Origin: Micavibrio sp. UBA7657
GTDB lineage: Bacteria > Pseudomonadota > Alphaproteobacteria > Micavibrionales > Micavibrionaceae
Reading direction: 5' to 3'
Assembly (NCBI GenBank): GCA_002483465.1
Contig: DLHX01000018.1
Location: 5,285 to 69,284 of the forward strand
Length of the DNA stretch: 64,000 nt
Below are positions 1,368-55,306 of the stretch, one piece after another. The position numbers were made by a program, and so were the translations under genes. The notes under the pieces were generated by a model that saw nothing but the letters and a program-made list of their open reading frames with translations, was not told where the DNA came from and did no database searches. How positions within the stretch are numbered: position 1 is the stretch's first letter; the number at the start of each line of letters is the position of its first letter.

Positions 1368-1407
1368 AGCCTATAATCGCCGCGAAGCGGCCAGCCGATA
1401 AAAAGAT

Positions 1408-1433
1408 GGACCCCCGCTCAAGGCGGGGGTGAC
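1408..1433. repeat. REP-like hairpin (GGACCCCCGC-TCAAG-GCGGGGGTGAC); likely also the purC terminator
   Basis: 7-bp G/C stem CCCCCGC/GCGGGGG. It shares ATGGACCCCCGC...GCGGGGGTGACA with the copy inside ileS. On the minus strand it is followed by CTTTTTAT, just downstream of the purC stop. Confidence 0.7.
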
Positions 1434-36760: not shown

Positions 36761-37199
36761 TGATGACTGCATATTCACCATCGAGTGTGAAATTGGCGTT
36801 TTCTTTAAGAGTGCAATCGTTTTTATACCCACTCTTTAAATGTGGCCTTAAGCCTTTCTTCTCAATTTTTATAACTATTTTATTTTTTATGAAAGCAAAA
36901 GCCCACAATCCATCATCATCCACATTAGGCAATTTATTTTCAAAATCCCCTAAATAAGATTGCGAATTCTTAATGATTTCCTCAGGATCTGAATAAGGGG
37001 ATAAAATACAAACTGTATCCCAATCATAATTTGTAACTTCGGCCAGATACACTTTTGAGGAAGATTTAAATTTTTCGTTCGTTTTATTCCAAAAACTATT
37101 CGTTAGTTCTGAAATTATAATGGAAAGAAAAAATCCGGCAATCATTAAACAAGGAACACCAAACAATATTCCAAATAGCCATAGAAAAAAAATTCTCAT
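36750..37199 (-). CDS. hypothetical membrane-anchored protein (AT-rich insertion)
   Basis: N-terminal hydrophobic anchor FFLWLFGILFGVPCLMIAGFFLSIII plus a roughly 115-aa soluble domain. Two sampled lines are 28% and 35% G+C. The start shares a base with the murC stop (TAATG). Confidence 0.6.
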   Translation of the reverse strand: MRIFFLWLFGILFGVPCLMIAGFFLSIIISELTNSFWNKTNEKFKSSSKVYLAEVTNYDWDTVCILSPYSDPEEIIKNSQSYLGDFENKLPNVDDDGLWAFAFIKNKIVIKIEKKGLRPHLKSGYKNDCTLKENANFTLDGEYAVINDE

Positions 37200-38641
37200 T
37201 ACGCCGCGTTGCCTTTGGAACGAGCGAAAAGCGGCTCAAGCTCGCCGGGGAGCGCGTAGGCCCAATAGGTGATATCCCCCGCCCCTAAACAAATCACGTA
37301 ATCGCCCGGCTGCGCCATTGACGCCACGCGCCGCGCGAGCTCTTCCTTGCCGGAAAGCGGCAACACATGACGGTGGCCGTGTTTTCTAATGCCTTCAATC
37401 AGCGAATCCCGGCTCGCGCCGTCAATCGGCTGCTCGCCCGCCGTATACACATCGGCGACGATCACGCTGTCCGCTTCATTAAAACAGGTGCAGAAATCCT
37501 CGAACAAATCATGGAGCCTCGTAAATCTGTGCGGCTGCATGACGGCGATCACGCGCCCGCCATTTTCCGCCACCATCATACGCGCGGTTTTTAAAACCGT
37601 TTCAATTTCCACCGGGTGATGCGCGTAATCGTCAATCACCGTCACGCCCGCCGCCTCGCCGGTTTTCGTGAAACGGCGTTTGACGCCCGTAAACCCGGCC
37701 AACGCTTTTTTCATCACCGGCGGCGCCACCTGCATCTCGCAGGCAATCGCCAGCGCAACGAGCGAATTCTGCACATTATGATGTCCCGGCATCGGCAGAT
37801 GCACATCCTTCAGAACCAATTCCTTATTTTTGTTCAGCCTTGGCGCAAAGGTCACATCGAATAAACTTCCATTCGCACCGCTGCGGATATTCGACGCGTG
37901 CACATCGGCTTGCGGGTTGAAACCGTATGTAATCACTTTACGGTCCTGGATCGTGGGAATGAGCGCCTGCACTTCCGGGTGGTCCATGCACAAAACCGCA
38001 TAACCATAGAAGGGAATGTTATGAATGAACTGGCGGTAGGCTTCCTTCACCTTCTCGAAATCACCGTAATGGTCAAGGTGTTCGGGGTCGATGTTCGTCA
38101 CCACCGCAACCGTCGCCGGCAAATGTGTGAAGGTACCGTCGCTCTCGTCGGCCTCCACCACCATCCACTCGCTTTTGCCGAGGCGGATGTTGTTGCCGTA
38201 GGCATTAACGATGCCGCCATTGATGACGGTCGGATCGAACCCTGCGATTTCCATCATCTGGCCGACCATCGATGTCGTCGTCGTTTTTCCGTGCGTGCCC
38301 GCCACCGCGACCGCTGATTTCAATCTCATCAGTTCCGCCAGCATCTCGGCGCGGCGCACGATGGGAATATTTTTTGCGCGCGCAGCCTTCAATTCTGGAT
38401 TGTCGTTTTTTACGGCGGAGGAAATCACCACGGCGGTGACGTCGCCGATATTCTTCGCGTCATGGCCGATGAAAATTTTAATGCCGCGCTCTTTTAATCT
38501 TTTAACATTTGCGCTCTCGGATAGATCCGACCCCTGCACCGCGTAACCAAGCACGGATAAAATCTCGGCAATCCCGCTCATGCCGATGCCGCCGATGCCG
38601 ACGAAATGCAATGTGCCGATGTCTTCGGGCAAGCCCTTCAT
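37199..38641 (-). CDS. murC: UDP-N-acetylmuramate--L-alanine ligase
   Basis: [33 protein letters not shown] Shine-Dalgarno. Confidence 0.96.
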
Positions 38642-38675
38642 GGAGATTCCTTATTGCCTCTAAAATTCCTTTACT

Positions 38676-38700
38676 GTCACCCCCGCGAAGGCGGGGGTCC
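38676..38700. repeat. REP-like hairpin GTCACCCCCGC-GAAG-GCGGGGGTCC
   Basis: 7-bp G/C stem with a 4-nt loop. Exact (25/25) reverse complement of 53173-53197 inside ileS. Confidence 0.85.
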
Positions 38701-38707
38701 GGCAAAG

Positions 38708-39454
38708 TTACATAAATTTGCGCTTTTTGAAAACCCGAACATCCAAAGCTGTAAGATTAAACCACTCACCATTGAGATGTTTATCTTTGAATCTGTTATG
38801 CCAGTAAGTTTCTATTCCACTCGGATCATCTGTGCGTATGCTATGAATAGGTTCAATTTTTTCAGGCAATTGTATGCCAATCTCGTACTGGCGCCGATCA
38901 AGTGCCTTAGTACACCCAATTTTATAATTCTTTCCTGATTTCATAAGATAAACAAAACCAAAATCTTCCTGATCCCTAAAATCCTCAACATCCTCTTCTA
39001 CTGAAGTGGTATGCCCTGTTATTAGAGGCTCACAAATTTCTAATATGTCTTGGTACTCGTCAGGAGTTTGACGACAAAAATTCTTTACCGCCTCTATCAT
39101 GCTCTTTTTTTTGCCGAGGTTTTTAGCGAAGGTAGCGTAATCGGGAAAATGTTCATTACGAGCAGATTCTCGTTTGAATTCCACCTTCATAGGAAAATGG
39201 CCTAATGTTCTGATGAATGTAATAAGTTTTTCAATAAGAATATCTTGGCCATACGCTCCTTGAAATTGATTGGGCGTATAACCAGCTTCTGCCTGAACAT
39301 CGCTCCAACGATTCCAATCATTCCAAGCTTTTCCCAACCAATCATCTCGCTTGATGCCGGTAGCCTGAAAGAATTGGCCCATTCCTAAAGGCTTGCCACC
39401 ATTTTTTTCAGCGGTTCTTTTGATTTCGCTCAGAATGTGCTGTTTTTTATCCAT
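38708..39454 (-). CDS. GIY-YIG superfamily (T5orf172/MUG113-like) nuclease with two N-terminal homing-endonuclease-associated repeats
   Basis: C-terminus GFVYLMKSGKNYKIGCT..LDRRQYE...IHSIRTDD....E..WHNRFKDKHLNGEWFNL. The N-terminal half is two roughly 55-aa repeats (ILSEIKRTAEKNGGKPL..W..W......AGY and ILIEKLITFIRTLGHFPM...F). Two sampled lines are 33% and 38% G+C. Confidence 0.75.
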   Translation of the reverse strand: MDKKQHILSEIKRTAEKNGGKPLGMGQFFQATGIKRDDWLGKAWNDWNRWSDVQAEAGYTPNQFQGAYGQDILIEKLITFIRTLGHFPMKVEFKRESARNEHFPDYATFAKNLGKKKSMIEAVKNFCRQTPDEYQDILEICEPLITGHTTSVEEDVEDFRDQEDFGFVYLMKSGKNYKIGCTKALDRRQYEIGIQLPEKIEPIHSIRTDDPSGIETYWHNRFKDKHLNGEWFNLTALDVRVFKKRKFM

Positions 39455-39503
39455 CGCCGGAATATAGCATTATGGATAAAAATCTCAAATCTCTTAAATT
39501 GCC

Positions 39504-39528
39504 GGATGCCCGCCTGCGCGGGCATGAC
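39504..39528. repeat. REP-like hairpin GGATGCCCGC-CTGC-GCGGGCATGAC
   Basis: 8-bp stem ATGCCCGC/GCGGGCAT with a 4-nt loop. Same GGA..../....TGAC termini as the other copies, inverted relative to 38676-38700. Confidence 0.8.
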
Positions 39529-39556
39529 AATTATTGCACTTTAACGATTAAAGGGA

Positions 39557-40663
39557 TCAATCCCCCCAGCCACTCACCATCGCGGTGACCAGGTTGCCGA
39601 GCTTGCGCGCGGCGTCCGGTTTCCCGCAGCTTCTCGATTTTTCGGCCGCCCGGAAGAGAATGGAGGGATTTTGCAGGAAAGTCTCGATTCTTGCAAGCAG
39701 GGCCTCGGTGGTGAAACCGCCCTCTGCCATGACCCAAGCCCCGCCTGCATCGGCCACGGTTTCGGCATTCATTTTCTGCTGCTGGTCCTTATGATGTGGA
39801 TACGGCACGAAAATTGCCGGGCGGCCCGCCGTGGTGACTTCGGCCACCGTGCTGGCGCCCGAGCGGCCTATAATAAGGTGGGCTTTGGACAATTCCCCAG
39901 CCACATCGTCGAAGAATGACCTCAGATCGCACTTGATGCCCGCAACTTCGTATGTCCGGCGCACGGATTCAAGATCGTCATTCCGGCATTGCTGCACGAC
40001 ATATAGACGTTGACGGTATTCGGCTGAAAGTTTTGCCAGAGTCTGCGGCACGATATCGCTGAATACTTTTGCGCCCAGCGATCCGCCCATGACAAATATC
40101 CTGAGCGGCGTTTCGTGACCGAGATTGGGATAAGGCTGGGTGTAGAGCGCCGCGATGTCGGGACGTACCGGGTTGCCGGTGACAACCGAGCGCATGCGTT
40201 CGCTGTCATCCAACCCCTGAACCACGGGCAGCGAGAGCGCGATGCGCGCCGCCTTGCGCGCAAGGAATGCATTCGCATTACCGATGATGGCGTTCTGCTC
40301 ATGGATAATTGTTGGCACGCCCATTTTCTGCGCGGCATAAACCGCCGGGACAGATGGATAGCCGCCGAAACCGACCACCAGTTTCGGTTTCAGTTTCATA
40401 ATCAGCATCAGCGCCTGCCCGAACCCCATACCGAGATTGGCCGCACCCTTGATCTTGCCCATCGCGCCCGCCCCGAACGTACCGGAGCGCAGGACATGCG
40501 CGGGAATTTCACCGAACATATGCTGGTATTTCATGCCGCGCTCATCTGTAGCCAGTTCGATGCGGAACCCCCGCGATCGAAGGTCTTCCGCAAGCGCCTG
40601 CGCGGGCGTCATATGCCCACCCGTGCCGCCACTGCTGAGAAGAATGAGATTATCCTGTTTCAT
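39557..40663 (-). CDS. murG: undecaprenyldiphospho-muramoylpentapeptide beta-N-acetylglucosaminyltransferase
   Basis: GGTGGHMTPAQALA and the C-terminal GASTVAE motif. Confidence 0.95.
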   Translation of the reverse strand: MKQDNLILLSSGGTGGHMTPAQALAEDLRSRGFRIELATDERGMKYQHMFGEIPAHVLRSGTFGAGAMGKIKGAANLGMGFGQALMLIMKLKPKLVVGFGGYPSVPAVYAAQKMGVPTIIHEQNAIIGNANAFLARKAARIALSLPVVQGLDDSERMRSVVTGNPVRPDIAALYTQPYPNLGHETPLRIFVMGGSLGAKVFSDIVPQTLAKLSAEYRQRLYVVQQCRNDDLESVRRTYEVAGIKCDLRSFFDDVAGELSKAHLIIGRSGASTVAEVTTAGRPAIFVPYPHHKDQQQKMNAETVADAGGAWVMAEGGFTTEALLARIETFLQNPSILFRAAEKSRSCGKPDAARKLGNLVTAMVSGWGD

Positions 40664-52450: not shown

Positions 52451-55306
52451 TTATGCCGCTTTCTGCTTCTGCTGCTTCACAGCCTCGGCGCAGCGGATGC
52501 AGAGTGTGGGATGCTCTTTGTTCTCGCCAACTTCCGGCAACACTTTCCAGCAGCGCCCGCATTTATCGCCTTCAGCTTTCTGAAAGGTCACTTTCGTTTC
52601 TGCAGCATTTTCCACAGTCGCCTGCGAGGTGATGCAGATTTCCGCCATGTCAATTCCATCAAGGCCCGCCGCCTCGATCACAGGGTGCGCTTCGAGCGAC
52701 GAGCCAATCGTTTTATCGGCACGCTTCGGCTCCAGCGTTGCGAGAACAGCCGAACGCACTTTCGAAATATTTTCCCATTTCACTTTCAGCGCATCGTTTT
52801 TCCAATCTTTCGGAATCTGCGGGAATGCGTGGAAGTGGATGCTGTCGCTATCCTCGAACACGCCTTTGGGGCGGTAGCTCCAGGCTTCTTCCGCCGTGAA
52901 GCAGAGGAGCGGCGCGAACCATGACGTGACGCATTCGAAAATATGCGCGATGACGGTGCGGCAGGCGCGGCGCTCGAATGACTCAGCCGCGTCGCAGTAC
53001 AAACGGTCCTTGCGGATATCGAAATAGAACGCTGACAATTCATTATTGCAGAAATGGTGGAGCTTGTTGGCGAGGCGGCCGTAATCGTGGCTTTGGATGC
53101 AACCCCGAACAAATTCATCCATTTCAGAGAGAAGATGGAGCATGTAACGCTCCAGTTCGGGAACGTCGGGATGGACCCCCGCCTTCGCGGGGGTGACATC
53201 GAGAGAAATTTTTTCCTGCGCGGTGAAACCATCCAGCGCGCCCAGCAAAAATCTAAACGTATTCCTGATACGGCGGTAAAGATCGCCGATGTTTTTGAGG
53301 CTGTCCTGACCGATGCGGACGTCTTCGGCGTAATCCGACGTCATCACCCACAGGCGCAAAATGTCCGCGCCATAAGTCTCCATGACCTTCAGCGGATCGG
53401 TGACATTGCCCTCCGACTTCGACATCTTGTAGCCTTTTTCATCGAGCACAAAGCCATGCGTCAGCACCGATTTGTACGGCGCATGCCCACGCGTGCCGCA
53501 AGATTCCAGGAGCGATGAATGGAACCAGCCGCGATGCTGGTCGGATCCTTCGAGATACATGTCGGCGGGGCTGCTCAATTCCTCGCGGTCTTCGGCGACG
53601 AACGCATGCGTGCAGCCGGATTCAAACCAGACATCGACGATGTCGAACACCTGGTTGTAATCCTCGGTGTCGTAATCGCCGCCGAGGAAATAGGACGCCG
53701 GGCGCTTCCACCACGAGTCGGAGCCTTCTGCTTCGAACGTATCCTGAATTTTTTTGAAGACATCTTCGTCGATCATCGGCTTGCCGGTGACCTTGTGCAC
53801 GAACAGCGCGATGGGAACGCCCCATGCGCGTTGGCGCGAAATGCACCAGTCGGGGCGCTGCTCGATCATTGACCGAATTCGTATTTCTCCTTTAGCAGGC
53901 ACCCATTGCGTGTTGCCGATGGCTTTCAAGGCGCGCTGGCGCAATGTCGTGCCGTCGCTGAATTCCCTGTCCATCGCGATGAACCATTGCGGCGTGGCGC
54001 GGAAGATCAACGGCGCCTTGGAGCGCCAGCTGTGCGGGTATTCATGGCGCATCGAACCCTTGGCGAGCAAATGCCCGGCCATATCGATTTCCTTGATGAC
54101 CGCGAAATTGGCCTGACCCAGTTCGCCCTTCTGCGTGTAGACCTCGAGGCCGGCAAAGAGCGGGATGTGGCCGCGGAACGTGCCGTCGTCATCCAGATTG
54201 TCGGTCATCTCGAGGCCGTTCGCGAGGCCGAGATTGAAGTCGTCAACGCCGTGGCTCGGCGCGATATGGACGAAGCCGGTACCGGTGTCTTCGGTGACGA
54301 AATCCCCGGCGAGCAGCGGCACTTCGAAATCATAGCCCTTGCCGTTCAAAGGGTGGTTAGTAATCGTGCCCGCGAAATCTTTGCCCTTGAACGAGGCAAG
54401 TTCAGCAAGTTCAGAAATTTTAGCGTCTTTCTTGACCTGCTCCGAAAGTTTTTTCGAAAGCAGAAGTTTCTCGCCGGTTTTCGCCTTGCTGCCTTCGGCG
54501 ACTGATTTCACTTCGTACAGCGCGTATTCCATGTCCGGGCCGTAGCCGATGGCGCGATTGGACGGCAGCGTCCATGGCGTGGTCGTCCAGATGACGAAAT
54601 TCGCGCCTTCCAGTTCCTTCTTCGACGCCTTCACGACCGGGAATTTCACCCAAACCGTGACGGATTTATGTTCCTTGTATTCGACTTCGGCTTCGGCGAG
54701 TGCTGTTTTTTCAACCGTCGACCACATGACCGGCTTCGCGCCGCGATACAGGCCGCCGTTGGATGCGAACTTATGAATCTCGCGCACGATGGAGGCTTCG
54801 GCGTGATTGGTCATGGTGAGGTAAGGGTTATCCCAGTCGCCAGCAACGCCGAGGCGCTGGAATTGTTTCGACTGGGTTTCGACCCAGCCTGCTGCGAATT
54901 TGCGGCATTCGTCGCGGAACTGGAGGATATCGACATCGTCCTTGTCCTTGCCCGCCTCGCGGTATTTTTCCTCGATCTTCCATTCGATCGGCAGGCCGTG
55001 GCAGTCCCAGCCGGGGACGTAAGGGCTGTCATAGCCCATCATCTGCCAGGAACGGACGACGACGTCTTTCAAAATCTTGTTCATTGCGTGGCCGATATGG
55101 ATGTTGCCGTTCGCGTAGGGCGGCCCGTCATGCAAGACCCATTTAGGCTTACCTGCTGATTGCTTACGCACCGTGTCGTAAAGCCTCATTCCGTCCCATT
55201 TTTTGACTGTTTCCGGCTCGTTTTTCGGCAGTTCGCCGCGCATAGGGAAATCCGTTTTGGGGAGGAAAACGGTATCGCGGTACTGGTCTTTGTTATCGGT
55301 GCTCAT
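52451..55306 (-). CDS. ileS: isoleucine--tRNA ligase
   Basis: HIGHAMNK and KMSKSEGN class I motifs, a CP1 editing domain, and a C-terminal Zn-ribbon CGRCW...CIRC. Confidence 0.97.
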   Translation of the reverse strand: MSTDNKDQYRDTVFLPKTDFPMRGELPKNEPETVKKWDGMRLYDTVRKQSAGKPKWVLHDGPPYANGNIHIGHAMNKILKDVVVRSWQMMGYDSPYVPGWDCHGLPIEWKIEEKYREAGKDKDDVDILQFRDECRKFAAGWVETQSKQFQRLGVAGDWDNPYLTMTNHAEASIVREIHKFASNGGLYRGAKPVMWSTVEKTALAEAEVEYKEHKSVTVWVKFPVVKASKKELEGANFVIWTTTPWTLPSNRAIGYGPDMEYALYEVKSVAEGSKAKTGEKLLLSKKLSEQVKKDAKISELAELASFKGKDFAGTITNHPLNGKGYDFEVPLLAGDFVTEDTGTGFVHIAPSHGVDDFNLGLANGLEMTDNLDDDGTFRGHIPLFAGLEVYTQKGELGQANFAVIKEIDMAGHLLAKGSMRHEYPHSWRSKAPLIFRATPQWFIAMDREFSDGTTLRQRALKAIGNTQWVPAKGEIRIRSMIEQRPDWCISRQRAWGVPIALFVHKVTGKPMIDEDVFKKIQDTFEAEGSDSWWKRPASYFLGGDYDTEDYNQVFDIVDVWFESGCTHAFVAEDREELSSPADMYLEGSDQHRGWFHSSLLESCGTRGHAPYKSVLTHGFVLDEKGYKMSKSEGNVTDPLKVMETYGADILRLWVMTSDYAEDVRIGQDSLKNIGDLYRRIRNTFRFLLGALDGFTAQEKISLDVTPAKAGVHPDVPELERYMLHLLSEMDEFVRGCIQSHDYGRLANKLHHFCNNELSAFYFDIRKDRLYCDAAESFERRACRTVIAHIFECVTSWFAPLLCFTAEEAWSYRPKGVFEDSDSIHFHAFPQIPKDWKNDALKVKWENISKVRSAVLATLEPKRADKTIGSSLEAHPVIEAAGLDGIDMAEICITSQATVENAAETKVTFQKAEGDKCGRCWKVLPEVGENKEHPTLCIRCAEAVKQQKQKAA
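53173..53197. repeat. REP-like hairpin GGACCCCCGC-CTTC-GCGGGGGTGAC inside the ileS coding sequence
   Basis: Exact reverse complement of 38676-38700. Translated in the ileS frame it reads VTPAKAGVH. Confidence 0.85.

Follow-up and report, generated by a model that had tools for sequence, protein, structure and literature searches.

CGTC-tagged repetitive extragenic palindromes (REPs) consist of an unpaired CGTC tag, for which TGTC and CCTC are also accepted, a stem of 8–9 bp, a loop of 4–5 nt, and a 3-nt tail of approximately CCA, as described for the CGTC-1 family by Di Nocera, De Gregorio and Rocco (2013, BMC Genomics 14:522, PMC3733652). These repeats are mainly alphaproteobacterial, and Micavibrio aeruginosavorus is among the named hosts, Micavibrio being an obligate bacterial predator (PMC3733652). 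In the isoleucyl-tRNA synthetase (IleRS) of Erythrobacter litoralis, residues 467–488 (VTPAEAGVSPGHEQIPASAGMT) represent an in-frame CGTC-1 dimer (VTPAEAGVS..IPASAGMT), and the Rickettsia palindromic elements (RPEs) RPE-4 and RPE-6 of R. conorii, which end with CGTC, were placed in the CGTC-tagged superfamily (PMC3733652). For RPE-1, the citing papers give a length of ~100–150 bp and a conserved peptide of 30–50 aa (Ogata et al. 2000 Science 290:347, via PMC10969869 and PMC3733652). In the NTS hairpin system, Ssn proteins cut single-stranded DNA beside their cognate hairpin, and the gene is arranged as NTS-ssnA-NTS (Chenal et al. 2025, Nat Commun 16:2388, PMC11893778); in Neisseria meningitidis, 2% of the NTS lie inside genes (PMC11893778). 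Here, we analyzed a stretch of 64,000 nucleotides from Micavibrio sp. UBA7657 (assembly GCA_002483465.1, contig DLHX01000018.1, positions 5,285 to 69,284; hereafter the window) that contains ileS, the gene encoding IleRS. Very probably, one dispersed CGTC-tagged REP unit, referred to below as Ssn-related motif (SRM), lies within the ileS coding sequence, is translated as VTPAKAGVH, and occupies a tolerated linker, where it is most likely neutral.

The element is an SRM/CGTC-tagged REP singleton on the minus strand at 53171..53198 (TGTCACCCCCGCGAAGGCGGGGGTCCAT) and matches the published SRM search motif. It is composed of a TGTC tag, an 8-bp stem (ACCCCCGC/GCGGGGGT), a GAAG loop, and a CCA tail; a unit of 27 nt thus comprises a 4-nt tag, an 8-nt arm, a 4-nt loop, the second 8-nt arm, and a 3-nt tail, and with tag and tail included it covers 53171–53198 (27–28 nt). 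The palindromic core, which is strand-neutral, spans 53175..53194, with arms at 53175–53182 and 53187–53194 and the loop at 53183–53186. The plus strand reads GGACCCCCGCCTTCGCGGGGGTGAC at 53173–53197. A preliminary description of this DNA had reported that this 25-nt hairpin is the exact reverse complement of one beside a GIY-YIG gene, and the reverse complement (GTCACCCCCGCGAAGGCGGGGGTCC) was indeed present without a mismatch at 38676–38700. Allowing up to three mismatches, the 20-nt core occurred twice in the window and in none of 100 dinucleotide shuffles, and the 25-nt core was identical in two other copies of the genome (C14:108699 and C16:43960, giving three in total). A stable G/C hairpin in the mRNA had likewise been proposed; RNA folding gave −21.7 kcal/mol compared with a shuffle mean of −11.5 (z = −3.96), and 0 of 200 shuffles were as stable. 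The 28-mer is free of stop codons in five of the six reading frames, with a TGA in one reverse frame only. By its anatomy, the ileS element is a CGTC-tagged REP, which is the same as an SRM.

The ileS gene (52451..55306, minus strand) encodes a protein of 951 aa and is the sole IleRS gene of the genome, for which a single strong match was obtained. Among solved structures, 8c9e (E = 4.6e-235) and 1ffy matched best. Around the insert, the open reading frame (ORF) reads ..EKISLDVTPAKAGVHPDVPELERYML.., and over a longer stretch ..GFTAQEKISLDVTPAKAGVHPDVPELERYML.., confirming the proposal that the hairpin is translated in frame; it yields (D)VTPAKAGVH, corresponding to V704–H712. An AlphaFold model built from a 30-sequence alignment (mean predicted local distance difference test score (pLDDT) 87, predicted template modelling score 0.78) comprised a helix at residues 667–690, a coil at 691–716, and a second helix at 717–739. 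V704–H712 fall within the coil, and pLDDT was below 50 at residues 705–709; the expectation of a loop following the KMSKS region was thus borne out by a site that is predicted with low confidence. We take this coil to be the linker that joins the catalytic body after KMSKS to the helical anticodon-binding domain, as in class Ia synthetases. Because the insert is predicted to lie in a low-confidence loop between two helices, it is most likely a flexible, tolerated segment and a neutral passenger.

IleRS sequences from 29 related genomes and 78 further alphaproteobacterial species were aligned. The genome under study (G000; 2.09 Mb, 19 contigs) was compared with four congeners (G001–G004), which makes five species. 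The extra segment was absent from more than 100 other alphaproteobacterial IleRS, namely those of 25 genomes of the family and order, the 78 further species, and congener G003, and no residues were added at the linker in any aligned IleRS outside the genus (the same 25 genomes and 78 species). A fixed alignment window held 34–40 residues in the IleRS outside the genus versus 44 in the G000 protein. In G003, whose IleRS is 91% identical, the linker reads ..QEKIS-EKDYAKM-PELER.. without an insert. Since it is the same as in distant relatives (e.g. ESDYAKM in L015), it represents the ancestral, empty state. Between GF and PELE, 21 residues were counted in G000 and 14 in G003 and most family members (+7 aa). 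The preliminary description had estimated an excess of about 10 aa exactly at the hairpin; this figure holds against more distant Alphaproteobacteria (~10 aa), whereas the excess is smaller against G003 and most of the family (+7) and against 8c9e (+9 aa, exactly here). As some of the ancestral linker (EKDYAKM) was lost, the net gain is limited to 7–10 aa.

Judged by these alignments, the V704–H712 segment is an in-frame insertion and not ancestral protein. That it is IleRS sequence of old standing which happens to be palindromic has nothing to recommend it apart from the intact reading frame and is extremely improbable: the VTPAKAGVH segment is missing from all orthologues outside this organism, its 25-nt core recurs unchanged in intergenic copies at other genomic positions, and it fits a dispersed family of 96 sites. 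The orthologue alignments already refute this explanation, and the segment is lineage-specific, in line with the mobile palindrome in an essential gene that the preliminary description had proposed. Equally hard to credit is an assembly or binning artefact, for instance a misjoin that a repeat induced during metagenomic assembly. The sequence is indeed a draft in 19 contigs, but the frame is exactly kept, ileS sequence stands on both flanks, the read length exceeds the 27-nt repeat, and other in-frame elements occupy the same linker in three independent congener assemblies.

Members of the family were counted by a strict scan for perfect stems and by BLAST with 12 sub-consensus sequences. These censuses replaced a loose hairpin scan (7-bp stem, at most one mismatch), the 290 matches of which were largely due to chance. 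The genome contains ~70 perfect-stem copies of GTCAyCC..GGrTC hairpins and 96 element sites according to BLAST, and at least 11 inverted pairs lie ~65 nt apart. The SRM motif HGTCWYN(0-2)YYVSBRHN(0-5)WNVSBRGN(0-2)RNCYNB matched 54 times in the genome versus 4–11 times in five first-order Markov controls. The genomic copies begin with CGTC or TGTC, the ileS copy with TGTC. In the stem of the latter (B-type), pair 1 is A-T and pair 2 is C-G, whereas A-type copies (ATCCCGGC) have A-T at both. An intergenic member with a 5-nt loop is located on the minus strand at 1406..1433 (GTCACCCCCGCCTTGAGCGGGGGTCCAT), where C16:6717 corresponds to window position 1433.

These features agree with CGTC-1 in the C/TGTC tag, the 8-bp stem, the 4-nt loop, the CCA tail, the lack of a RAYT, the frequency of head-to-head dimers, and the occurrence of in-frame intragenic copies in IleRS and TruB. 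The ileS copy differs in its C-G pair 2, as A-T is found 'almost invariably' in the first two pairs of CGTC-1, a wording that leaves room for deviating copies (PMC3733652). It also differs in its site (residues 704–712 in G000 IleRS versus 467–488 in E. litoralis) and in being a singleton rather than a dimer. The element further resembles the NTS consensus (CGTCATTCCCGCGMAVGCGGGAATCYRG), with compensated changes in the stem.

The same linker of about eight codons carries differing inserts in four of the five congeners, the fifth, G003, having no insert in its ancestral linker. In G000, the insert is the B-type singleton VTPAKAGVH, with the element in the frame GTC ACC. G001 has a 72-nt doublet of a related type (TPAQAGAHSDSRQQSMGPGLRRDF) in the same frame as G000, with a degenerate GTCA head (GAA ACC). 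A 91-nt doublet of another family (CHPEWSAKHEVEGSKRDLSASDLRSFAQD) is present in G002 in the frame TGT CAT, and G004 carries a singleton of the G002 family (CHPERSEGS), also in the frame TGT CAT. The congener inserts are thus single or double, belong to two families, and use two reading frames. Those of G002 and G001 have dispersed relatives in their own genomes (14 and 16 matches, respectively), including full-length doublets at 79–82% identity, and the inserts fold with −56 kcal/mol (G002) and −51 kcal/mol (G001). In the IleRS of G004 (L005), the peptide PLPQGEGRGEGVR was additionally observed in frame near P0001 residue 450; it resembles another palindromic repeat family.

The ileS tree had the topology (G004,(G003,G001,(G000,G002))), and the junctions of the inserts differ by 6–15 nt between congeners. 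The linker appears to have received at least two insertions, three or four being most parsimonious, because the empty allele represents the ancestral state and the inserts differ both in junction and in frame, of which two are used; the number of separate events was derived from five genomes and a tree that is not resolved in all parts. Several families in one linker of sister species were reported for CGTC-tagged REPs only in recB of two Xanthomonas species (PMC3733652).

The series might also reflect turnover, in which one old insertion in the ancestor of the genus was later overwritten in place by other repeat families, if it did not decay. Hairpins with the common GTCAYCC head could have replaced one another by gene conversion or by template switching, and the four ileS alleles would then not be independent events. 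In ygfZ, the D-type singleton of G000–G002 and the A-type doublet of G003 begin at the same nucleotide (ATAyyGTCATCC), which resembles an in-place exchange; a doublet in dxs has clearly been passed down to G000–G003, decaying in situ; and the ileS inserts of G002 and G004 agree in junction, frame, and family. We nevertheless regard turnover as the origin of the series as rather unlikely. The ancestral EKDYAKM is kept in G003, is missing from all filled alleles, and could not be regained. In addition, the head frame differs (TGT CAT in G002 and G004 versus GTC ACC in G000), the junctions lie 6–15 nt apart, and the carriers of the F-type inserts, G002 and G004, are not sisters according to the tree topology given above. 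Repeated insertion is accordingly preferred, and a partial in-place turnover of linker elements may have occurred besides.

Recruitment of the hairpin for a function was considered as well, either as an mRNA structure that slows translation or stabilizes the ileS message, or as a loop that contacts the tRNA or a partner. The ileS hairpin is very stable, the G002 (−56 kcal/mol) and G001 (−51 kcal/mol) inserts are even more so, and the linker is filled in four of five species. The four inserts share, however, no common sequence, length, or frame, and therefore no conserved peptide or RNA feature; no insert is present in G003 or in more than 100 other species, the peptide is predicted to be disordered, and the same elements are present in unrelated genes. 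A recruited function is thus improbable, and a tolerated, neutral insert remains the favored explanation.

A genome-wide scan, which had been suggested on the basis of the ileS copy, retrieved further in-frame copies in at least seven other housekeeping genes. In dxs (C9:377227-379206, L031), a doublet of 24–33 aa reads SSSRRKPGSG..DPVLQRDD. It is common to G000–G003, in which it decays, and is absent from other genera. The decay of its stems across the four species (G001–G003 in L032–L034), from SSSRRKPGSG to SQPRRKPGP, provides a time series from repeat to ordinary protein sequence. A DinG-like helicase contains an element (CHPGESRDRGIDGNPAPASAG) in G000 and G003 only (the G005 row of the helicase alignment was left out of the comparison). 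A target-site duplication was sought at the helicase junction, and none was seen. At the filled sites of both ileS and the helicase gene, 5–7 ancestral codons are missing beside the element, which is unlike the outcome of a simple cut-and-paste event. Each event seems to remove a few ancestral codons, which may point to a copy-in mechanism rather than to simple cut-and-paste transposition.

An in-frame singleton was found in ygfZ of G000 (L123). At the same ygfZ codon, a D-type singleton is present in G000–G002 (L123, L124, and L125) and an A-type doublet in G003 (L129), which suggests an in-place exchange of repeat cassettes in this gene. In G006 ygfZ, a decayed stretch that resembles GTCACCCC..GGATGAC occupies this position. 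In truB (C11:5656), an in-frame doublet (CHPERSEGS..SLSLRMT) lies at about the same place as the insert of E. litoralis TruB listed by Di Nocera, and the protein is 19 aa longer than 1sgv. The product of ispH, which carries an in-frame doublet at C9:371592-371650 (HCHSERSEES..GAQDDT), is ~19 aa longer than 4h4c. Two further in-frame doublets, in leuS (C15:239272, CHPERSDAERHEVEGS..LRSAQDDS) and in a bioA-like aminotransferase gene (C17:61763, VIASEAKQS..LRRDAPRND), were identified by repeat match only. Three candidates were not counted as in-frame gene insertions: C11:124050 lies in a spurious-looking antisense frame, C12:30223 precedes the probable argH start, and C15:245900 is a weak match. 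Upstream of G005 dxs (L036), the peptide SPLRGEGWGEG..PHPSPLPKGRGG resembles the product of another palindromic repeat family; the dxs frame of G005 ends early (..GGFGSLVL*) compared with its relatives, which may reflect a frameshift or a sequencing error.

We consider it possible, if somewhat doubtful, that the IleRS linker, and likewise the YgfZ and TruB loops, are true hot spots for hairpin elements. Either the elements would then be aimed at particular DNA sites, or resident copies would be swapped for other families via breaks introduced by hairpin-specific GIY-YIG nucleases.

The analogy to RPEs drawn in the preliminary description turned out to be closer than proposed, as RPE-4 and RPE-6 belong to the same CGTC superfamily (PMC3733652), although the likeness to these two is confined to the shared CGTC class. 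As far as RPEs are characterized in the papers cited above, both are selfish palindromic repeats that interrupt various unrelated housekeeping genes without disturbing the frame, at sites that the protein fold can accommodate. With 27–28 nt and 9 aa, compared with the ~100–150 bp and 30–50 aa given there for RPE-1, the G000 element does not fall under RPE-1. The host also differs, being a Micavibrio-like lineage and not the obligate intracellular Rickettsia.

The hairpin at 38676–38700 belongs to a twin SRM unit (38675..38702, plus strand, TGTCACCCCCGCGAAGGCGGGGGTCCGG) that forms the left end of a cassette between murC (37199..38641, minus strand) and murG (39557..40663, minus strand). The right end is formed by a partner SRM hairpin at 39502..39529 (minus strand, TGTCATGCCCGCGCAGGCGGGCATCCGG), inverted and with the tag outermost. 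Between them, an ORF of 248 aa (38708..39454, minus strand), flanked by murC on one side and by murG on the other, encodes a protein with a C-terminal MUG113/T5orf172 (GIY-YIG-like) domain (PF13455, 6e-14; PF10544, 8.9e-7). The segment at 38675–39529 looks like a mobile cassette with a nuclease branch unlike the Ssn-type genes of PF01541. The hairpin-bracketed ORF lies within a cluster of cell-division and cell-wall genes.

Elsewhere in the genome, there are seven small PF01541 genes. Six of them have a hairpin on either side at a distance of up to 90 nt, the two being inverted with their tags facing outwards, and every bracketed GIY-YIG gene has its own hairpin subtype. These six genes encode proteins of ~95 aa and are located, each with an inverted hairpin pair, at C9:390045, C19:40146, C15:243542, C12:53787, C9:356291, and C15:207083. 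At C15:207083, 2–3 stop codons mark the copy as a pseudogene. The seventh gene (C10:62130) has no hairpins and lacks a sequence motif common to the other six.

Single-domain GIY-YIG genes for ~95 aa proteins and the order hairpin–gene–hairpin are thus shared with the NTS/SRM system. By domain and gene arrangement, the G000 GIY-YIG proteins are likened to Ssn, and cleavage of single-stranded DNA is a putative activity. The two systems differ in that G000 has in-frame copies in at least eight housekeeping genes, compared with the 2% intragenic NTS in N. meningitidis, and in that the cassette at the twin hairpin contains MUG113/T5orf172 and not PF01541. With REP/REPIN-RAYT systems, the G000 elements share short GC-rich hairpins that occur as singlets and inverted doublets, a nuclease gene bracketed by cognate repeats, and a repeat subtype of its own for each gene copy. 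They differ in lacking the GTAG tag and in their partner, a GIY-YIG nuclease, with no Y1_Tnp in five congeners. RAYT (PF01797) was absent from G000–G004 in a profile search that was positive in six control genomes. The element had initially been called REP-like; this stands for the hairpin repeat as such and for its affiliation with the CGTC-tagged REP/SRM, but not in the classical GTAG/RAYT sense, since the partner is a putative Ssn-type GIY-YIG nuclease. A classical GTAG/RAYT reading was rejected because PF01797 is missing from the five genomes and the tag is not GTAG. An interpretation as a new GIY-YIG-based repeat system was also rejected, as such systems are already published (Chenal 2025, Di Nocera 2013). 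In-frame insertion of CGTC-tagged REPs and the link between hairpins and GIY-YIG nucleases (published 2025) are already known, whereas a genus-level ileS hot spot and a loss of ancestral codons per event were not found described in the literature.

Several points weigh against a simple insertion of a mobile, neutral element. The ileS insert is not a clean addition, the linker being 7 aa longer than in G003 while the ancestral EKDYAKM is missing; to judge from the alignment, the event involved a small deletion, a replacement, or later remodelling. A target-site duplication was looked for at the ileS junction, and none was seen. Neutrality of the insert is a point that we infer from the predicted structure alone. 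When the small GIY-YIG proteins were compared with NCBIfam, no specific family was assigned, and TIGR01453 was matched at sub-threshold level only. Finally, the results of Chenal 2025 concern cleavage and an influence on transformation rather than transposition (PMC11893778), and mobilization of SRM by Ssn is a hypothesis.

The following course of events would be consistent with the data. Elements would spread via single-stranded DNA, possibly assisted by Ssn-type GIY-YIG nucleases, by analogy to the systems described. One SRM unit would have landed in the ileS linker that connects the last helix following KMSKS with the helix at the start of the anticodon-binding domain. The frame of ileS is kept because 27 nt correspond to nine codons, and since five of six frames are free of stops, the reading of ileS is not interrupted and the element contributes the peptide VTPAKAGVH. 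According to the structural model, the insert would have no effect on IleRS activity, and the mRNA hairpin would presumably have no regulatory role.

The ileS linker provides a natural series of one empty and four differently filled alleles of an essential-gene loop in species that are 7–25% apart. It bears on how CGTC/SRM hairpins enter DNA, with no target duplication seen and few codons lost, on whether Ssn-type GIY-YIG nucleases drive their spread, and on the tolerance of a synthetase linker to insertions. Housekeeping proteins that are heavily decorated with in-frame repeats, for which Rickettsia is the best-known case, also occur in a Micavibrio-like lineage. For genome annotation, the peptides VTPAKAGV, CHPERSEGS, SSRRKPGS, and DPRLRGGD flag segments derived from repeats. 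If the linkers and loops in question are true hot spots, surface loops of essential proteins would evolve by the exchange of small repeat cassettes.

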